DNA from: Dictyostelium discoideum
Taxonomy: Eukaryota
NCBI GenBank assembly: GCA_000004695.1
Contig: CM000153.2
Span: forward strand, 4,576,001-4,640,000
Reading direction: 5' to 3'
DNA: 64,000 bases
The notes beneath the pieces are model-generated. The model was not told the origin of the DNA and did not search any database. It saw only the letters and a program-made list of their open reading frames with translations. Below, piece by piece: positions 8,316-63,699 of the stretch (the first letter of the stretch is position 1; every line of letters starts with the position of its first letter). The position numbers were made by a program, and so were the translations under genes.

Positions 8316-9302
8316 ATGTTATTATTCAGAAATTTAAATAAAATTAATAAAAATAATTTAATTTTAAATATTTCAAAAAATATTCAAAAATCATCTTCAT
8401 CATTATCATATTCAACAAATGTTTTAAATAAAACCAATCAAGTTAATAATAATAATATTGAAAATGAAGAAAGTGAAGATATTAATAATGAAAATTATTT
8501 AAAACATTATAGTCAATCAAGAGAACAAATGATGAATGATTATAAAGATAAAACTGGTAAAGATATTTATGAATCAAAAGCTAGACCAATTACACACACA
8601 ATTAAAGAATTTAGAAAACAATTTAAAGATCAATTAGAAAATGGCAGTAAATTAACAGACATTGAACAACCAATCATTTTAGCAGGCCGTGTTAAATCAA
8701 TCCGTATCTCAAGTAATAAACTAGTATTCATTGATATTAATTCATCATTAACAAATCAAGAGATTTCATATACTGATATTATTCAACAGCAACAACAACC
8801 ACAACAAAATAGTGATAGTAATGAAAATAGTCGTATTAAAGGTGGTCAATATTCACTTCAAGTTATGGCAGATAAAAAATTTTATAAAAATTCATTAGAA
8901 TTTGAAAATATTATATTAAATTTAAGAAGAGGTGATATTATTGAAGTTAGTGGTTTACCAGCAAAAACTAAAGTTGGTGAAATTTCAATTATACCAATTG
9001 AAATCAATATTTTAACACCATGTGTTCGTCCAATTCCACAGAAATTAATTGATAAAGAAATTCGTTATAGAAATCGTCCATTGGATTTCTTAGTTAATCC
9101 AACAACTCAAAAACCATTTTATATTAGATCAAAAATGATTACTTATCTTCGTAAATTCTTGGTTGAAAAAGGTTATTTAGAAGTTGATACACCAATTTTA
9201 TCAACAAATGTTGGTGGTGCAAATGCAAAACCATTTAAAACTCATTCAAATTCTTTAAATTTAGATTTATTTTTAAGAATTTCACCAGAATTATTTTTAA
9301 AA
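8316..9302 (+). CDS. Lysyl-tRNA synthetase (class II), exon 1, with an N-terminal presequence-like extension (possible mitochondrial isoform)
   Basis: Anticodon-binding OB region RGDIIEVSGLPAKTKVGEISI and motif 1 region RYRNRPLDFLVNPTTQKPFYIRSKMITYLRKFLVEKGYLEVDTPIL. The exon ends ...PELFLK, followed by GTAAGT at 9303. The N-terminus MLLFRNLNKINKNNLILNISKN is basic and hydroxylated and lacks acidic residues (presequence-like). Confidence 0.8.
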
Positions 9303-20404: not shown

Positions 20405-20409
<5 letters not shown>

Positions 20410-21722
20410 AGTAGTTGGTGTTATATGAGCAGTATGGTATGAAGTGTTCCGGGATGTTTATGGTCATGAGTTTCGAGTTCCAGTTGTGGCTGAATTTTTC
20501 GAGTCTTCTTTTTATTGATGCGGTCCGATTGATTGACTCTCGGTTATCAGTGCATCTTAGTTCTTGACGTAGTTGTTTTTCTACTATCTTTCTTGTTCTA
20601 TCCCATTCGGCATCTCTCGCTTTTTTGATTTTATGAATTATTTGGTTCTCTGTTATTATTGTAGTGTTATCGTTGAATTTTATTTGATTTCTTCTGTACC
20701 ATATCGATTCCATAATGGCTCCTATCAGATTTGATGAGAATGGTGTGAGTAGTTTTCCGAGAACTTTTTCGCTCCATGGACCGTGGTAAGTGTTGTTGGA
20801 GTCTTTACAGACCTTTTGATAGATTGAGTCGATATTCTGTTTTATTGATTTGCATTCGAAGAAGATGTGCATAGACGATTCTTCTTCTTTACATGAGTGG
20901 CAATTCTCCCCATGGTGTTTTGGAAGTGCCTTGAGTAGATATCTCCATGCTAAGTCTCTTCCTTTGATAGTTGTGATTGATCTGGCTTCTCTGAATGGTA
21001 GAATTGGGTGATTAATGTTCTTTTGAATCAGTTTTTGACCTGTTGTTGGCTGGTGTTTGTTCCATCCCTTGTATTTGATATCCATCATGTTTCTATAGAT
21101 TACTTTTAATTTTTGTTTGTTTTCGTATTTGGGTTTGACTTGGTTTAGTTTGAGAGTTATTCGCTCTCTTGGGTGGTGCAACAACTTCCAGGCTTTCCAG
21201 CATTTGATGTGAATCCTTGATAGTGAGTTTTCTTTTTCCGACTTCCAGACTTCCATATGTGGAGGGCAGTTCTGGTCGTCTTTTTCTCTGAGGTATTGTT
21301 CGTATATCCATGCTTTCTGGGCATTGGATCTGGTTGCCATATTCCAGAGTTCCAGGCCTCCAATTTCATAGTCTCTTCTGCTCCTTTCTTTTGAGATAGC
21401 CCACCTGTCCCCTTTGAATAACATGTTGGCATTAACGTTCTCCAGTTTCTTTATGTCATTTATTTCGTTGATGTATAGTTGGAATGTTAGTTGGGACAGC
21501 AGGTATGATTTGAGGATTGTGATTCTACCTTTTAGCGTTGATGACACGCTCGAATAGCATTTTGTGAGGTTTTCCAGTTTGTTCACCGTATCATCTACTT
21601 TGCTTATTACACCTTTGCGGTTGAAGAAAAAGCCAAGATATCTTTCTTCTTCTTTCGCCCCAATTGTCTTATATTTGGTCTTTATCTTTGGGTTTTTAGT
21701 GATGCACACACATTTATTATCG
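20405..21722 (-). CDS. Retrotransposon ORF2, C-terminal (post-RT) portion; N-terminal part lost in the assembly gap
   Basis: 438 real codons before the N-run. It has cysteine/histidine-rich stretches (HHGENCHSCKEEESSMHIFFECKS) as in LINE ORF2 C-terminal zinc-knuckle-like regions. It is similar to the second element in the window. Confidence 0.6.
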
Positions 21723-21822
21723 NNNNNNNNNNNNNNNNNNNNNNNNNNNNNNNNNNNNNNNNNNNNNNNNNNNNNNNNNNNNNNNNNNNNNNNNNNNNNN
21801 NNNNNNNNNNNNNNNNNNNNNN
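21723..21822. other. Assembly gap (100 N) inside the TRE5-type element
   Basis: Run of exactly 100 N. By convention this is a gap of unknown size. The RT/APE part of the element and any ORF1 are presumably hidden here. Confidence 0.95.
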
Positions 21823-22260
21823 AAGTGTTGTTGTTGATGTTTTTTCTCTTACTGATTATTTTTTCCTTTTTTTTGAAAATTTTGCGAAGCAAAATTTTCA
21901 AAAAAAAGAAAAAAATAAATTACAATAAAATAAAGAAATAAAGAAGTTTACTCTAAGTGTATTTTATTTTATTTTTTTTAAGTCTTTTTTTTATATGAAA
22001 AATGAAATAATCAAATAAAAAAAGTGTTGTTGTTGATGTTTTTTCTCTTACTGATTATTTTTTCCTTTTTTTTGAAAATTTTGCGAAGCAAAATTTTCAA
22101 AAAAAAGAAAAAAATAAATTACAATAAAATAAAGAAATAAAGAAGTTTACTCTAAGTGTATTTTATTTTATTTTTTTTAAGTCTTTTTTTTATATGAAAA
22201 ATGAAATAATCAAATAAAAAAAGTGTTGTTGTTGATGTTTTTTCTCTTACTCGTTAGTTT
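21823..22260. repeat. Tandem repeat, 199-bp unit x about 2.2 (copies start at 21823, 22022, 22221). Candidate duplicated 5' A-module/promoter module of the TRE5-type element.
   Basis: The unit AAGTGTTGTTGTTGATGTTTTTTCTCTTACTGATTATTTTTTCC...GAAATAATCAAATAAAAA repeats with a period of exactly 199 nt. The third copy diverges after 30 nt (..CTTACTCGTTAGTTTT) and ends about 34 bp before the tRNA. Confidence 0.85.
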
Positions 22261-22293
22261 TAATATGGTGAATTTTTATTCAAATTTCACCAA

Positions 22294-22367
22294 GCCTTAG
22301 TAGCTCAGTTGGTACGAGCGTGAGACTGAAGATCTTAAGGTCGCTGGTTCGATCCCGGCCTGAGGCA
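22294..22367 (+). tRNA. tRNA-Phe (anticodon GAA)
   Basis: GCCTTAGTAGCTCAGTTGGTACGAGCGTGAGACTGAAGATCTTAAGGTCGCTGGTTCGATCCCGGCCTGAGGCA. The acceptor stem GCCTTAG/CTGAGGC has one G-U pair. The D-arm is GCTCAGTTGGTA..GAGC. The anticodon loop is CTGAAGA. The T-arm is GGTTCGATCC with the discriminator A (box A/box B consensus). It is almost identical to canonical eukaryotic tRNA-Phe. Confidence 0.92.
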
Positions 22368-22438
22368 AATTTTTTATTTCACACCCCCCAAAATACAGAT
22401 CGCATGTTCGACTCCCATATAAAAATATAGAAAAAACC

Positions 22439-22456
22439 ATTTCACCCACAGTTAAA
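22439..22456 (+). repeat. 5' target-site duplication (ATTTCACCCACAGTTAAA) of the downstream retroelement
   Basis: Perfect 18/18 match with 25042..25059. The 5' copy lies immediately before the ORF1 ATG. The 3' copy lies immediately after an A16 tail. Confidence 0.8.
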
Positions 22457-23122
22457 ATGAATTTTTTCGATAAACTTAAAGGTGAACTCAACTTTGGCGA
22501 AGAAGAGTTAAATAAAAAAACTATTCAAATAAGGTTATTCTACCCACATACCTTGGAATTGAATAGTAATTCAACAAAATTAATAGATAATTTCATAGTT
22601 AATGGTACTCTTAACATTGTCAGAAGACAAAAGGGTATAACAGTATTCGGTAGAATACTAAAAGAAAAATTCACATTATTACACGAGTGTTACAGCACTT
22701 TCAAGTATGAAGATTTTCCACTGCAAAAATTCATACTTTACACCCCAGGATATCACTATGTCCACTTTTACACATTTACAAAAAACATAATAAAAAAAAT
22801 AAACAATCAAATGGTAAAAGAAAACTGGGGATTGGAGCCATTACTAATAGATGAATGCAACATAGTACTGCTACCAGATGTGATTAGATATTCATGCATA
22901 CTATTATTTAATAAAGAAGATGATATCTCAATCATTGATGCTATAAAAGGTAGTAAGCATCCAATAAGAGCCTTCATCTCTGAATATAACAATAAAGAAA
23001 TAAGAGATGTTAGAAAAAAAAAAACACAAGTAATAAAAACCAACAACCAACAACTACAAATACAACTAAATCAATACCATCAACTCCACCAACAACTAAT
23101 GCATCAACAACCACACCAATAA
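22457..23122 (+). CDS. Retrotransposon ORF1 (221 aa)
   Basis: First ORF of the element, starting exactly at the TSD boundary. It has a Gln/His-rich C-terminus. I have no recognisable domain by eye. Confidence 0.5.
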   Translation: MNFFDKLKGELNFGEEELNKKTIQIRLFYPHTLELNSNSTKLIDNFIVNGTLNIVRRQKGITVFGRILKEKFTLLHECYSTFKYEDFPLQKFILYTPGYHYVHFYTFTKNIIKKINNQMVKENWGLEPLLIDECNIVLLPDVIRYSCILLFNKEDDISIIDAIKGSKHPIRAFISEYNNKEIRDVRKKKTQVIKTNNQQLQIQLNQYHQLHQQLMHQQPHQ

Positions 23123-23318
23123 CAACCACACCAATAACAACCACACAAACAACAACCACACCAACAACAACCACACATCAATTACCAACAAGCAATACAA
23201 CAATCTACAACCTAAACAAAACTACTACTACTACTACTACTACTACTACAAAACCTATCAATAAAATTACTACAAGCAATGGTACCAAGTTTCCAATTGC
23301 CAGTAGTATTAGAAAATA

Positions 23319-24506
23319 ATGGAACAATTAAAATTATTACTATGGAACTGCAGAGGTAATCAATCAACCAACGCTAAGAATAAAACAGAAGAAACGATAA
23401 AAAGAATTGGCACTCAATTAGCACTCCTAACTGAAACTAATTTCAATGGATTCAACCACCACAAAACAATGTTCAACTTTGAAAGAATAGATCATGGTTC
23501 AGGTAAAGGAACTGGCATAGCAATAGAAAATAGAGATACAAGAAAAGGCCACATATCAATAAACTTCAAAGACGATGATGGTAGAATACTATCAATTAAA
23601 TACAATTCCTTTAATTCTATCAACATATTATTGATCTATGCTCCAGCGACTATATCTGAAAGAAACACCTTCATAATCAACTCAAAATCACTGTTTAAAA
23701 AATATAATTCAATCAACCATCAAATAATAGCAGGCGACTTCAATAACAACCACGATTGCAACAGCTTCTTCGGTACTGAATTACGTAAAATAATAGACCA
23801 AGACATGCTACTAGATACTGGTATTGAAGATAACACTCCAACATTTCCAAGATCAATGAAGAGACTAGATAGAATCTACTGTCATCCAACACTACTAAAC
23901 CAAAATTCAAAACTGGTAGTCCACAACACAGTATTTAACAAATCAGATCACTTTCCCATCACAATCACAATACAAACCAACAGAGAAACAACAACAACAA
24001 CAACAACCAAACTAGAAAGACTCCCTTGGACATTATGTAAAGAAATTCTCAACAACAAACATATACATGATGGGTTATCAGAATTAATCAGTAAGAACAA
24101 AGATAAGATCAAATCAGTGGAGGAATGGACGAAATTTAAAAATAATGTCATCAGAGATTATTTAAAAAAAGAACAAAACAAAATAAAGAAAGAAAAGAAC
24201 AAAAGAAAATACGTAATCCACAAATTACTTGGAAATAGTGATATCATTCCAAAGATGAGAAAAGAACTCAATGAAGAAATAAGTAGAATATTAGAAGAAG
24301 AAAGAAAGGTAAAAGCATGGGATATCAAATTAAAACTCCACCTGCATCAAGAAACACCAAGCAAATACCTCACAAGTATCCTTAAATCCAAGATCACTTC
24401 CAGGTATCAACCACGAAAGAGACACCAGATGCAAGATCTGTGGCCACCTTTTCAGAGACCCTTATTCTCACCTCTTCACTCTATGCCAAGATATCCTAGA
24501 TATTGA
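23319..24506 (+). CDS. Retrotransposon ORF2 N-terminal part: AP-endonuclease (EEP) domain, truncated before the RT domain
   Basis: EEP catalytic motifs are in order: N-x-R-G (WNCRGN), TET (LTETN), GDFN, and SDH (KSDHFP). The ORF ends at 24506 without reverse-transcriptase motifs, so the element has an internal deletion. Confidence 0.65.
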   Translation: MEQLKLLLWNCRGNQSTNAKNKTEETIKRIGTQLALLTETNFNGFNHHKTMFNFERIDHGSGKGTGIAIENRDTRKGHISINFKDDDGRILSIKYNSFNSINILLIYAPATISERNTFIINSKSLFKKYNSINHQIIAGDFNNNHDCNSFFGTELRKIIDQDMLLDTGIEDNTPTFPRSMKRLDRIYCHPTLLNQNSKLVVHNTVFNKSDHFPITITIQTNRETTTTTTTKLERLPWTLCKEILNNKHIHDGLSELISKNKDKIKSVEEWTKFKNNVIRDYLKKEQNKIKKEKNKRKYVIHKLLGNSDIIPKMRKELNEEISRILEEERKVKAWDIKLKLHLHQETPSKYLTSILKSKITSRYQPRKRHQMQDLWPPFQRPLFSPLHSMPRYPRY

Positions 24507-24564
24507 AAAAACCATCATATCAACAGTTAACAAATTATCATTCATCAAAATCCACAGATGGTCA

Positions 24565-24882
24565 ATGGAAACCTTAGACATATCAAAATACAACAGAACT
24601 GAGAGAATCTTCCCCAATCTCATAGGAATAATAGCACACCAATTATGGAAGATAATCTGTCACAAATTGTTCAACACTGATGAAAGCAAACCAGAGCCAA
24701 AATTCGAACAAAAGGTCATAGAAACAGAATTACTAAATCTCATCGAAACTGAAAAATTCATCACACTAAAGAAAATCAAACACGACGAAGCAATACTAAA
24801 AAACACCAATCAAGATCTTCACAAATACAAATTCAACAAAGCCTGGCAAACCCCAGCAGCTCCGAACCCTCTTCCAATTTAA
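24565..24882 (+). pseudogene. Remnant of the ORF2 C-terminal region of the TRE3-type element
   Basis: IGIIAHQLWKIICHKLFN... resembles the C-terminal segments of the two minus-strand elements (LIGAIMESIWYRRNQIKFN; LMALILHNIWIWICNQIY). It is in a different frame from the APE ORF. Confidence 0.45.
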
Positions 24883-25041
24883 GTAGTAGTAAAAAAAAAA
24901 AAAAAAAAAAAAAAATAATATAATATAGTTTAAAAAATTTAATACAATTGAATAATAAAAATAAAACCGTTTAACAAACACCGCCGAAAAGACACAAGGA
25001 CATTCCTTGAAGGTCTGATCACAGGTAAAAAAAAAAAAAAA

Positions 25042-25059
25042 ATTTCACCCACAGTTAAA
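25042..25059 (+). repeat. 3' target-site duplication (ATTTCACCCACAGTTAAA)
   Basis: See the 5' copy at 22439..22456. It follows A16. Confidence 0.8.
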
Positions 25060-25191
25060 TTAATTATTTTTATTTCTTTTACTGGGATAATTGAAAACAT
25101 TAGAATTTAAACATTTCTTTTTAAAATTCAAATTCCTTAAATAAAGCTATTAATTATTCTATATTTCCTTTAAAGGATAAACTATGATCAA

Positions 25192-25222
<31 letters not shown>

Positions 25223-25241
25223 TCATACCCAACTATATTTT

Positions 25242-25275
<34 letters not shown>

Positions 25276-25294
25276 TCATACCCAACTATATTTT

Positions 25295-25334
<40 letters not shown>

Positions 25335-26944
25335 ATCTTCATTTTTTCTATAAAAAAAAAAAGGGTGTATCTAACTCTTTATTTTTATTGTTTTATTATT
25401 TTTATAGATAATTGTGGATCATCTATGTATTAAATAATATATGAATCCTATTTAAAAAATGGCAGATGCTTTAAATATTTGTGTAGAATCTGACATATTC
25501 AATGAATCATATTTATCTCAATTTATATAATAATTTTAAATTTAAATAAAAAATCTAAATATGGTTTTTTTTTTTTTAAAGAGATAATTCATGGGTTTTG
25601 AAAGTATTTATTTTTATTTTTTATTTTTTATTTTTATTATTTTTAAAATAAAATTGAATAATAAAAAAAAAATAAAAAAAATAAAAAATATAAGAAAAAA
25701 AAAAATTAATCAATCTAAATCAATTTCTATTTTGAAAAAAAAAAAAAAAGAAAAAAAAAAAAAAAAAGTAATTAGGATGAATTTTCCTTATTGGGAAATA
25801 AAAAAAGTAAAAAGTATAATTTTTTTTTTGGAAATCAAGATCAAAAAATGTAACTCTTTTTGGGTTTACCAAATTTGGGTATCTTTTATTAAAAAAAAAA
25901 AAAAGTTTCAATTAAAATTTTTTAGTATAAAAAGACAAAAAATTATTAATTATTTTAAAAAAAAAAATAAATAAAATTTCAAAAAAAAAAAAAAAAAAAA
26001 AAAAAACAAAGAAATTTTACATTTTAGAAAAAACAAAGTTATAATTTTAATGTAAAAAAAAAAAAAAAAAAAAAAAAAAATTATAATTCTGGACATAAAA
26101 TATCAAAAGGTAAATTTTAATTTTAATTTTCTTATTTTTATTTTTTTAATTTTTCAAATATTTAATACATTAAATAATTTACCATTCTCTTTCTAATTAT
26201 TAGGTATAATGTAAAATTTATTTTTGTCTTTAAACTGTCCCAAATGAAATAAAACTTCCAACAGGTGTAATTAAATGTCAATACAACGGTTTTTTATTTT
26301 TTAAAAAAAAAAAGATAGTTTTATTAAGTGGTAGTTTATTTAGTATTGGTCGGTACTAACTCAATGTCTGAGAATCAAAGGATTTTATTTATTTTAAAAA
26401 ATAAATCTTTCAATTCTCAGGCTTTGCTAATTGGTAGATTGGTATTTAACAGCTTTCACTTAATAATATTTTTAAATTAAATAAACTAACTGATTGTCGA
26501 CAATAAACCATAATTTTACATGATAATTTGGACTTAATGCAAGGTAAACTATATTAATACTTTAATTCCAACACTATTTTATAAATATTGCAATTTTCTA
26601 ATAATATATATTTTAGATTGATCCAAGGATTTAATATCTGTCAACAGTACTATTAAAGGATATTGGAAGGTTAAAATCTAAACGTTAAAAAATAATATTA
26701 AATAAAATAAAATAAAATAAAAAAATATAAAAAAAATCTTATTTTAAAAACAAACAAACAATACATATTAATCATTAAATACTAATAGATTAAATTGTTT
26801 TTTATCCAATTAAAGGTCAAGATAAAATCGGGTAGATTTAATACTCGAAAAAAAAAAAAAAAAAAAAAAAAAAAAACAATAATAATTATAAAAAACAAAA
26901 ATAAATTAGGTTTTAATTGAGATGTATTATAGATTATTATAATT

Positions 26945-27486: not shown

Positions 27487-28368
27487 ATGAATTCAATTGA
27501 AAATAATAATAAAAATAATAATAAAAATAATAATAAGATTTGGTTAATCACAGGAACATCAAGTGGCATTGGTTTAGAATTAGTAAAGAAGTTATTAACA
27601 TATGGTTATAAAGTTTCAGCATTAACTCGTAGACCAGAAGAAATTGAAAAAGAGATTAAAGAAATTCAATTTGAAAAAGATAATTTATTAATTGTTAAAA
27701 CTGATATTACAAATAATGAATCAGTAAAGAGTGCAGTAGAAGAGACTATTAAACAGTTTGGTAGAATTGATGTGTTAGTAAATAACGCTGGTTATGGTTT
27801 AGTAGGTTCAATTGAAGAGTTATCAGATTCAGACGTTAGAAAGATATATGATGTAAATGTATTTGGTGTTTTAAATTTATTAAGAAATTCAACACCACAT
27901 TTTAGAAAACAAAAATCAGGTTTAATAATTAACATATCCTCTCAAATGGGTTGGGATAATATGGAATATTACTCAGCATATAGTTCAACTAAACATGCAG
28001 TTAATGCAATCACATTCTCTGCACAAAAAGAGTTAAAAGCATTTGGAGTGAATGTAATATTAGTTAGTCCAGGTGGATTTAGAACTGGTTTTGTTGCTGG
28101 TCAACAATCAAACTTTCAAGTACCTTCAAAATTAATTGATGAATACTCAACTCAATCATTCATTGAAATGTTTAATAAACACTCACCATATTCAAAAGGC
28201 GATCCTGAAAAAGCAGCTGAACTCTTAATTAAATTACCAACAATTGAAGAATTACCAAATAATTTATTCATTGGCTCTGATTCATTATCAGCTGCCAAAC
28301 AACAATTACAATCACATTTATTAGAAGCTGAAAAATGGTATGACCTTTCAATTTCAACTGATTATTAA
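27487..28368 (+). CDS. Short-chain dehydrogenase/reductase (classical SDR)
   Basis: WLITGTSSGIGLEL (TGxxxGxG), VLVNNAGYG (NNAG), SSQMG...YSAYSSTKHA (S...YxxxK catalytic triad), PGGFRT. The ORF is an uninterrupted 293 codons. Confidence 0.9.
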   Translation: MNSIENNNKNNNKNNNKIWLITGTSSGIGLELVKKLLTYGYKVSALTRRPEEIEKEIKEIQFEKDNLLIVKTDITNNESVKSAVEETIKQFGRIDVLVNNAGYGLVGSIEELSDSDVRKIYDVNVFGVLNLLRNSTPHFRKQKSGLIINISSQMGWDNMEYYSAYSSTKHAVNAITFSAQKELKAFGVNVILVSPGGFRTGFVAGQQSNFQVPSKLIDEYSTQSFIEMFNKHSPYSKGDPEKAAELLIKLPTIEELPNNLFIGSDSLSAAKQQLQSHLLEAEKWYDLSISTDY

Positions 28369-63599: not shown

Positions 63600-63699
63600 N
63601 NNNNNNNNNNNNNNNNNNNNNNNNNNNNNNNNNNNNNNNNNNNNNNNNNNNNNNNNNNNNNNNNNNNNNNNNNNNNNNNNNNNNNNNNNNNNNNNNNNN
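63600..63699. other. Assembly gap (100 N). The sequence after it (63701-64000) is an exact copy of 62400-62699.
   Basis: Direct string comparison: CTAAGTTTTCTTTTAGGTATCTGGATGTGAATTTG...GGTTTAATTCCT occurs at both places. Confidence 0.9.

Follow-up and report, generated by a model that had tools for sequence, protein, structure and literature searches.

Retrotransposons of the TRE3 family in Dictyostelium discoideum insert about 100 bp (40–150 bp) 3′ of tRNA genes and in the same transcriptional orientation, and an external B box (exB) has a role in their targeting (PMC5911963). Their published domain order is APE endonuclease, reverse transcriptase (RT) and zinc finger (PMC5006619); they carry an oligo(A) tail at the 3′ side, and their second open reading frame (ORF2) is reached by a −1 frameshift (PMC5911963, PMC5006619). 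In the same host, the TRE5-A.2 element has no ORF2 and is mobilised in trans with high efficiency, a process in which ORF1 in cis helps and the 3′ untranslated region (UTR) is essential (PMC3159450, PMC5633606); the parts that it retains suffice experimentally for this mobilisation (PMC3159450). For long interspersed nuclear elements (LINEs) more widely, PMC5391098 gives target-site duplications of about 7–20 bp, produced by target-primed reverse transcription. Here we describe how a TRE3-family copy next to a tRNA-Phe(GAA) gene compares with these systems. The copy lies in a 64-kb stretch of the D. discoideum genome (AX4/AX2 lineage; assembly GCA_000004695.1, contig CM000153.2, positions 4,576,001 to 4,640,000), called the window below, and all coordinates without a locus name count from its first base.

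The element and its duplicated target

We conclude with high confidence that positions 22457–25041 (plus strand; 2,585 bp) are a TRE3-family non-long-terminal-repeat (non-LTR, LINE-like) retrotransposon, inserted 89 bp 3′ of the tRNA-Phe(GAA) gene and in the same orientation. A preliminary description of this DNA had called the element TRE3-like and its body 2.58 kb long, and both statements hold. The ends were set by comparison with copies at two other tRNA genes in an independent assembly of strain AX2, loci L002 and L003. The tRNA gene (22294–22367, plus strand; ARAGORN, and Rfam tRNA at 62.5 bits) is the sole tRNA gene that ARAGORN found in the window. Its internal B box, GGTTCGATCCC, lies at 22346–22356 and an exB, GTTCGACTCCC, at 22406–22416, both on the plus strand. 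With its first base 89 bp downstream of the end of the tRNA gene, the element falls within the published interval of 40–150 bp, and a position downstream of a tRNA gene is the usual TRE3 target. The family assignment is further borne out by the poly(A) tail, the TAATG overlap of the two ORFs, the −1 position of ORF2, the APE domain and a CCHC motif. As in other non-LTR elements, the tail is oligo(A), terminal repeats are lacking and the target-site duplications vary in length (18 bp here, 14 and 17 bp in sibling copies). Two ORFs, the −1 frame and the order APE–RT–zinc finger are all found, the RT being seen in a 98%-identical sibling and not in the window copy.

The element is delimited by an 18-mer, ATTTCACCCACAGTTAAA, that occurs exactly twice in the window, both times on the plus strand, as a 5′ copy at 22439–22456 and a 3′ copy at 25042–25059. 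An exact search thus reproduced the identical repeats reported in the preliminary description, and when up to three mismatches were allowed the sole additional match was an unrelated site at 8589. At the base composition of the window (A 0.37, T 0.38, G 0.13, C 0.12), the chance probability of the 18-mer is 2.3e-11 per position, so that about 3e-6 extra copies are expected in 64 kb over both strands. It was not found in any other fetched locus and is present only in the two views of the tRNA-Phe locus, the window and the AX2 assembly.

Copies of the same subfamily elsewhere share the ends of the window element, ATGAATTTTTTCGAT... at the 5′ side and ...GATCACAGGT(A)n at the 3′ side, and have other flanks and other duplications. 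The L003 sibling, which has an intact 291-amino-acid (aa) ORF1, starts at the same ATGAATTTTTTCGATAAAC directly after an unrelated A-rich flank; L003 8973–10912 is 98.2% identical to window 22454–24390, and L003 15688–15036 (minus strand) is 98.3% identical to window 24389–25042. L003 holds, on its minus strand, a third 3′ fragment that ends in GATCACAGGT(A)n within yet another flank. At L002, two 5′-truncated TRE3 copies stand in tandem behind a tRNA-Val(AAC) gene, with 14-bp and 17-bp duplications of their own: the first, a member of a related subfamily, lies between copies of GTTTTGAGGTTGAT, and the second has the 3′ end of the window element, ...CCTTGAAGGTCTGATCACAGGT(A)17, with ATTGATGTTGATGATGT on both sides. 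Because these copies combine the same ends with different duplications, the 18-mer is a target-site duplication, foreign to the element.

The boundaries of the duplication deserve some care. The ORF1 ATG at 22457 directly adjoins the 5′ copy, as had been described. The terminal A run (25027–25042) comprises 16 A's, the last of which is base 1 of the 3′ 18-mer; only 15 A's therefore precede the 3′ repeat, one fewer than the preliminary description had counted, and at this side the duplication measures 17 or 18 bp. Both known 5′ ends (the window element and the L003 sibling) have A's before the ATG, so part of the AAA at the end of the 18-mer could be microhomology at the junction. The safest statement is an identity of 18 bp and a true target-site duplication of 14–18 bp. 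Its left edge lies 71 bp past the end of the tRNA gene and 22 bp past the exB; measured from where the internal B box starts, the distance is 93 bp.

How such an arrangement would arise can be sketched. The element endonuclease would nick the bottom strand 71 bp past the tRNA gene, at the point where ATTTCACCCACAGTTAAA begins; the nicked 3′ end, whose terminal T can pair with poly(A), would prime cDNA synthesis on the poly(A) tail; and a nick in the top strand 17–18 nt downstream, followed by fill-in, would give the duplicated 18-mer. The preliminary description held that the repeats show target-primed reverse transcription. We retain it as the probable mechanism and not as something shown, since these steps are inferred from knowledge of the family and from the general account of the process in PMC5391098.

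The 18-mer had also been noted to resemble the Dictyostelium upstream sequence element (DUSE), [AT]CCCA[CT]AA, with the caution that this might be coincidental. The caution was apt: ACCCACAG in the 18-mer mismatches the consensus at the last position, exact matches to the consensus are fewer in the window than expected by chance (4 against 10.5) with none in the repeat, and an Rfam search of 21800–26000 (E ≤ 1) returned no non-coding RNA besides the tRNA that reached a gathering score. The motif was accordingly rejected as a DUSE, and the likeness is chance.

Within its ends the element is full length at the 5′ side, has lost an internal stretch of about 1.9 kb and carries a poly(A) tail at the 3′ side. 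ORF1 (22457–23319, plus strand; three-frame translation and alignment with L003) is disrupted. Compared with the intact 291-aa ORF1 of the sibling, it has an in-frame loss of 12 bp at 22932 and a frameshift where the A run at about 23013–23025 is one A short; it ends in a TAA stop at 23317–23319 and has no Pfam match. The ORF2 ATG (23319–23321) overlaps this stop in the sequence TAATG (23317–23321), which places ORF2 in the −1 frame. Its first 357 codons (23319–24390, plus strand; Pfam and three-frame translation) hold the APE domain at aa 8–211 (nucleotides 23340–23951; Pfam Exo_endo_phos, 9.6e-11, profile positions 2–225 of 225). The earlier claim that both ORF1 and the APE domain are kept thus stands for the complete APE domain and fails for ORF1, which is frameshifted and 12 bp short. 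Past 24390 the open frame of ORF2 continues out of register to a stop at 24504–24506. The C-terminal part of ORF2 (24391–24882, plus strand; three-frame translation), out of frame with the APE part and 96% identical to the protein P0003, contains the CCHC zinc-finger motif RCKICGHLFRDPYSHLFTLC (C-x2-C-x9-H-x4-C) at 24430–24486 and ends in a TAA stop at 24880–24882. The 3′ UTR including the tail (24883–25041, plus strand) consists of GTAGTAGT, an internal A25 (24891–24915), about 111 nt of unique sequence ending in GATCACAGGT, and an A15 tail (25027–25041). Other copies have the same 3′ UTR layout with internal A runs of varying length. The closest proteins to the element are D. discoideum retroelement gene models, at 92–96% identity.

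Four points weigh against this account of the element. The size of the deletion is an estimate that takes a copy of a related subfamily to be colinear. An allele of the empty site exact to the base was not found, as the isolates that carry the orthologous locus are too diverged past the exB to be aligned across the insertion. The 5′ end at the ATG, with a leader of 0–3 nt, is odd for an element with a ‘short 5′ UTR’, and is known from two copies only. Finally, TRE3 comprises the subfamilies TRE3-A (= Tdd-3), TRE3-B, TRE3-C and TRE3-D; the protein matches of the window copy are all annotated as ‘hypothetical protein’, and its assignment is to the TRE3 family as a whole.

The internal deletion and its origin

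Alignments with the L002 and L003 copies map the breakpoints to a single junction between 24390 and 24391 (24389–24392, plus strand). The intact sequence at the left breakpoint reads ...CCTTAAATCCA/GAGCC and at the right breakpoint ...CCTTCTTCTCA/AGATCAC. In a longer alignment the full-length left side is ...AGTATCCTTAAATCCA/GAGCCAAAGAT... and the right side ...CACCTTCTTCTCA/AGATCACTTCCAGG..., and the window joins the two as ...AGTATCCTTAAATCCA/AGATCACTTCCAGG... with a 2-nt microhomology, CA, at the junction. In the sibling, the 466 codons after the left breakpoint hold a complete RVT_1 domain (Pfam, 3.4e-37, profile positions 3–204 of 205) that includes the FADD active-site motif, and the RT sits between APE and zinc finger. 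The missing stretch is about 1.88 kb (about 627 codons), with the entire RVT_1 domain included, an estimate that assumes colinearity with the first copy at L002 (P0003); the implied full-length element is likewise estimated at about 4.5 kb. In agreement with the preliminary description, which had the whole RT domain lacking, Pfam gave no RT match in any reading frame of the window element, its only match being Exo_endo_phos. Counted in the ORF2 frame, the number of bases lost is not divisible by three, which leaves the zinc-finger part out of frame. With the RT region gone, the zinc finger out of frame and ORF1 frameshifted, the copy is, judged by its coding sequence, unable to encode its own mobility. 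It was rightly called non-autonomous in the sense that it is incapable of moving on its own; nothing indicates that it ever moved in the deleted form.

When the deletion arose is less certain. We lean slightly towards a full-length TRE3 of about 4.5 kb that inserted at the tRNA-Phe gene and was shortened in place by about 1.9 kb at a later time, by microhomology-mediated end joining or replication slippage; the ORF1 frameshift would have come afterwards, in the decay of an inactive copy. The junction is unique to the tRNA-Phe locus among everything searched, the copy bears other marks of decay in the 1-nt loss from the A run and the 12-bp loss, and indels of 7 bp and 3 bp are private to the L003 sibling, so that small deletions do build up in these elements. 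No direct argument speaks against loss in place, and on present data it is indistinguishable from a deletion that occurred during insertion.

Rather less likely is the insertion of an RNA or cDNA that was already deleted, derived from a deleted master copy or from template switching and inserted through the ORF2 protein of an intact TRE3. The window copy would then be the TRE3 counterpart of the non-autonomous TRE5-A.2. It keeps what an element of the TRE5-A.2 type needs (a full 5′ end, ORF1, and a complete 3′ UTR with its tail), both of its junctions are clean and the duplication is perfect, the 2-nt microhomology is compatible with template switching by the RT, and TRE5-A.2 itself provides the precedent (PMC3159450, PMC5633606). 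Against this, a 22-mer from the junction (which reads AGTATCCTTAAATCCAAGATCACTTCCAGG as a 30-mer) was found only at the tRNA-Phe locus among the loci scanned and was absent from the JGI metagenomes, no other gene model spans the junction, and an exact look-up of the 395-aa ORF that crosses it gave no match. The copies that cover a breakpoint, one at L002 and two at L003, are all undeleted, although so small a sample is weak evidence. The parts used in mobilisation, that is, the 5′ end, ORF1 and the 3′ UTR, are kept without an RT, with ORF1 now frameshifted. That this RT-less copy inserted in its deleted form, an intact TRE3 providing both RT and endonuclease in trans, is a tentative proposal, to which we give a chance somewhat lower again. 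If true, it would be the first sign that TRE3, like TRE5-A, supports non-autonomous derivatives made of ORF1 and the 3′ UTR, and the copy would be a natural template for a tagged TRE3 reporter.

An assembly artefact, in which a repeated element collapsed in a gapped reference, could draw on the N gaps at 21723–21822 and 63600–63699 and on the neighbouring TRE5-A-type element, which is collapsed relative to the AX2 assembly; it has almost no chance of being right and is refuted by an AX2 long-read assembly. That assembly, GCA_054883475.1 (Nanopore and Illumina; from a study covering AX2-214 and nine wild isolates, bioRxiv 10.1101/2025.08.01.668227), is, at its locus L001, identical base for base to the window over 22294–25100, with both 18-mers, the junction and the ORF1 A run as in the window. 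We infer that GCA_054883475.1 is the AX2-214 genome, which shares the tRNA-Phe locus and proteins with AX4; an ACMSD exon beside the locus is 100% identical to the AX4 protein. Because this independent assembly agrees with the window from the tRNA gene through to the 3′ repeat, the deletion, the frameshift and the repeats are real.

A terminal direct repeat of the element, or a chance repeat, has the mere existence of the 18-mer in its favour and is equally remote: in three other subfamily copies these termini stand within different flanks and duplications, the 18-mer is absent from the other fetched loci, chance would give about 3e-6 copies, and the 18-mer-like motif that two isolates carry at this locus (ATTTCCACCCATCG, described below) would rather indicate host flank. 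The preliminary description had named membership of the 18-mer in the element consensus as the finding that would overturn its reading; the L002 and L003 copies, with their other duplications, show the opposite.

The tRNA-Phe locus and its relatives

Removal of the element and one 18-mer gives the reconstructed empty site, GAAAAAACCATTTCACCCACAGTTAAATTAATTATTTTTATTTC, for which an allele was sought. Exact look-ups of flanking proteins (an SDR gene at 27487–28368 and ribosomal protein P0) led to the AX2 assembly and to no other, and the loci of the closest SDR homologues, L006 and L007, were set aside as non-syntenic paralogues. Through the ACMSD neighbour we located three orthologous loci, L008 and L009 (both labelled D. 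discoideum) and L010 (D. cf. discoideum). All three keep the tRNA-Phe gene and the exB, and the flank beyond cannot be aligned. None has the window element. L009 has no retroelement on either side of the tRNA-Phe gene, and the distance from the tRNA to the landmark GTATCTAACTCTTTA is about 490 bp there, against about 395 bp in the window after subtraction of the element and one 18-mer. The search for an empty site that the preliminary description had proposed thus showed that three diverged isolates lack the element at this locus, and gave no empty site exact to the base. In L008 and L009 the motif ATTTCCACCCATCG, similar to the 18-mer, occurs singly about 85 bp past the orthologous tRNA-Phe and may be a diverged counterpart of the target.

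The exB region itself is conserved. The sequence GTTCGA(C/A)TCCCA (22406–22418), about 40 bp past the tRNA-Phe gene, is kept in four of four genomes in the midst of flank that cannot be aligned; its counterparts lie at about 15017–15029 in L008, 14008–14020 in L009 and 14038–14050 in L010. From about 15090 in L008 and at about 14200–14290 in L010, at least about 110 bp past the tRNA-Phe gene, a different sequence is found, with stretches alike between the two isolates (...GGTAGAGGTAAGCACTGGACACATGAAAGAATTAGATCC...). It may be another tRNA-targeted element.

On the other side of the tRNA-Phe gene, upstream of it and on the minus strand, lies an element of the TRE5-A type (window 20405–22261; L001 1737–7800), whose repeated 199-bp 5′ modules face the tRNA gene. 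The N gap at 21723–21822 hides several kilobases of this element that are resolved in the AX2 assembly, where it has a 454-aa ORF1, an RVT_1-containing ORF2 and no fewer than five 199-bp modules. Among D. discoideum tRNA genes, 13% are reported to have this configuration, a TRE5-A upstream and a TRE3 downstream (PMC5006619). Sub-threshold Rfam ‘mir’ hits at 21858–21916 and 22057–22115 fall on a palindrome within the A-module of TRE5-A and were dismissed. About 160 bp beyond the TRE3 copy, positions 25196–25332 consist of A25, CTTCATACCCAACTATATTTTC (25221–25242), A31, the same 22-mer again (25274–25295) and A37. This 22-bp direct repeat flanks nothing except poly(A), and the arrangement looks like an extremely 5′-truncated, tail-only non-LTR insertion with its own duplication. 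A repeat search of the whole window was dominated by AT-rich low-complexity families and gave nothing useful.

The sibling loci hold some further peculiarities. Two independent 5′-truncated copies of the same TRE3 subfamily, at L002 9848–10610 and L003 15770–15036 (minus strand), start at the same nucleotide, CGGTGAGATACAACACAGC..., at different tRNA genes and with different duplications; the common start could be a favoured truncation point or could mark a short propagating form of about 0.76 kb. Downstream of a tRNA-Pro gene, L003 14960–16065 is a tandem array of the 13-bp unit GGAATTGAAAAAA, interrupted by the 0.76-kb TRE3 fragment and by tiny fragments made of the TRE3 3′ end and poly(A). 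The pattern gives the impression of a series of insertions, every one of which duplicated the same target anew. Outside D. discoideum, a 373-bp element fragment in D. citrinum (L011 6769–7141) is 97.6% identical to window 23224–23596, and in the same context P0004 is 99% identical at the protein level. At the tRNA-Phe locus, by contrast, the intergenic DNA of the host resists alignment even between isolates of the discoideum clade. The D. citrinum likeness could reflect purifying selection on the element or a recent transfer between species.

Comparison with described elements

Much of what this locus displays is textbook TRE3 biology. The element is of a known kind, and the transposons of the reference genome have long been catalogued, so that the value of the present description lies mainly in annotation. 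It adds a TRE3 insertion resolved to the base, with the presumed nick 71 bp and the 5′ junction 89 bp past the tRNA gene and a duplication of 18 bp, and it illustrates how such a copy decays. With the TRE3 family the window copy shares the host, the site downstream of a tRNA gene beside an exB, two ORFs, the oligo(A) tail and duplications of 14–18 bp; it differs in that it has no RT region and its ORF1 is broken. With human LINE-1 and other APE-type LINEs it has in common the APE endonuclease, the poly(A) tail, the occurrence of 5′-truncated copies and target-site duplications of variable length, whereas LINE-1 does not target tRNA genes and its ORF1 proteins are unrelated.

The closest parallel to the deletion is TRE5-A.2, and the main point of interest here is whether TRE3 copies that have lost the RT can likewise be moved in trans. 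TRE5-A.2 belongs to another subfamily, inserts upstream of tRNA genes, is present in multiple copies and has proven retrotransposition, whereas the window copy is the single known copy with its deletion and keeps the APE part of ORF2. Like the window copy, TRE5-A.2 is an internally deleted derivative that has kept the 5′ end, ORF1 and the 3′ UTR.

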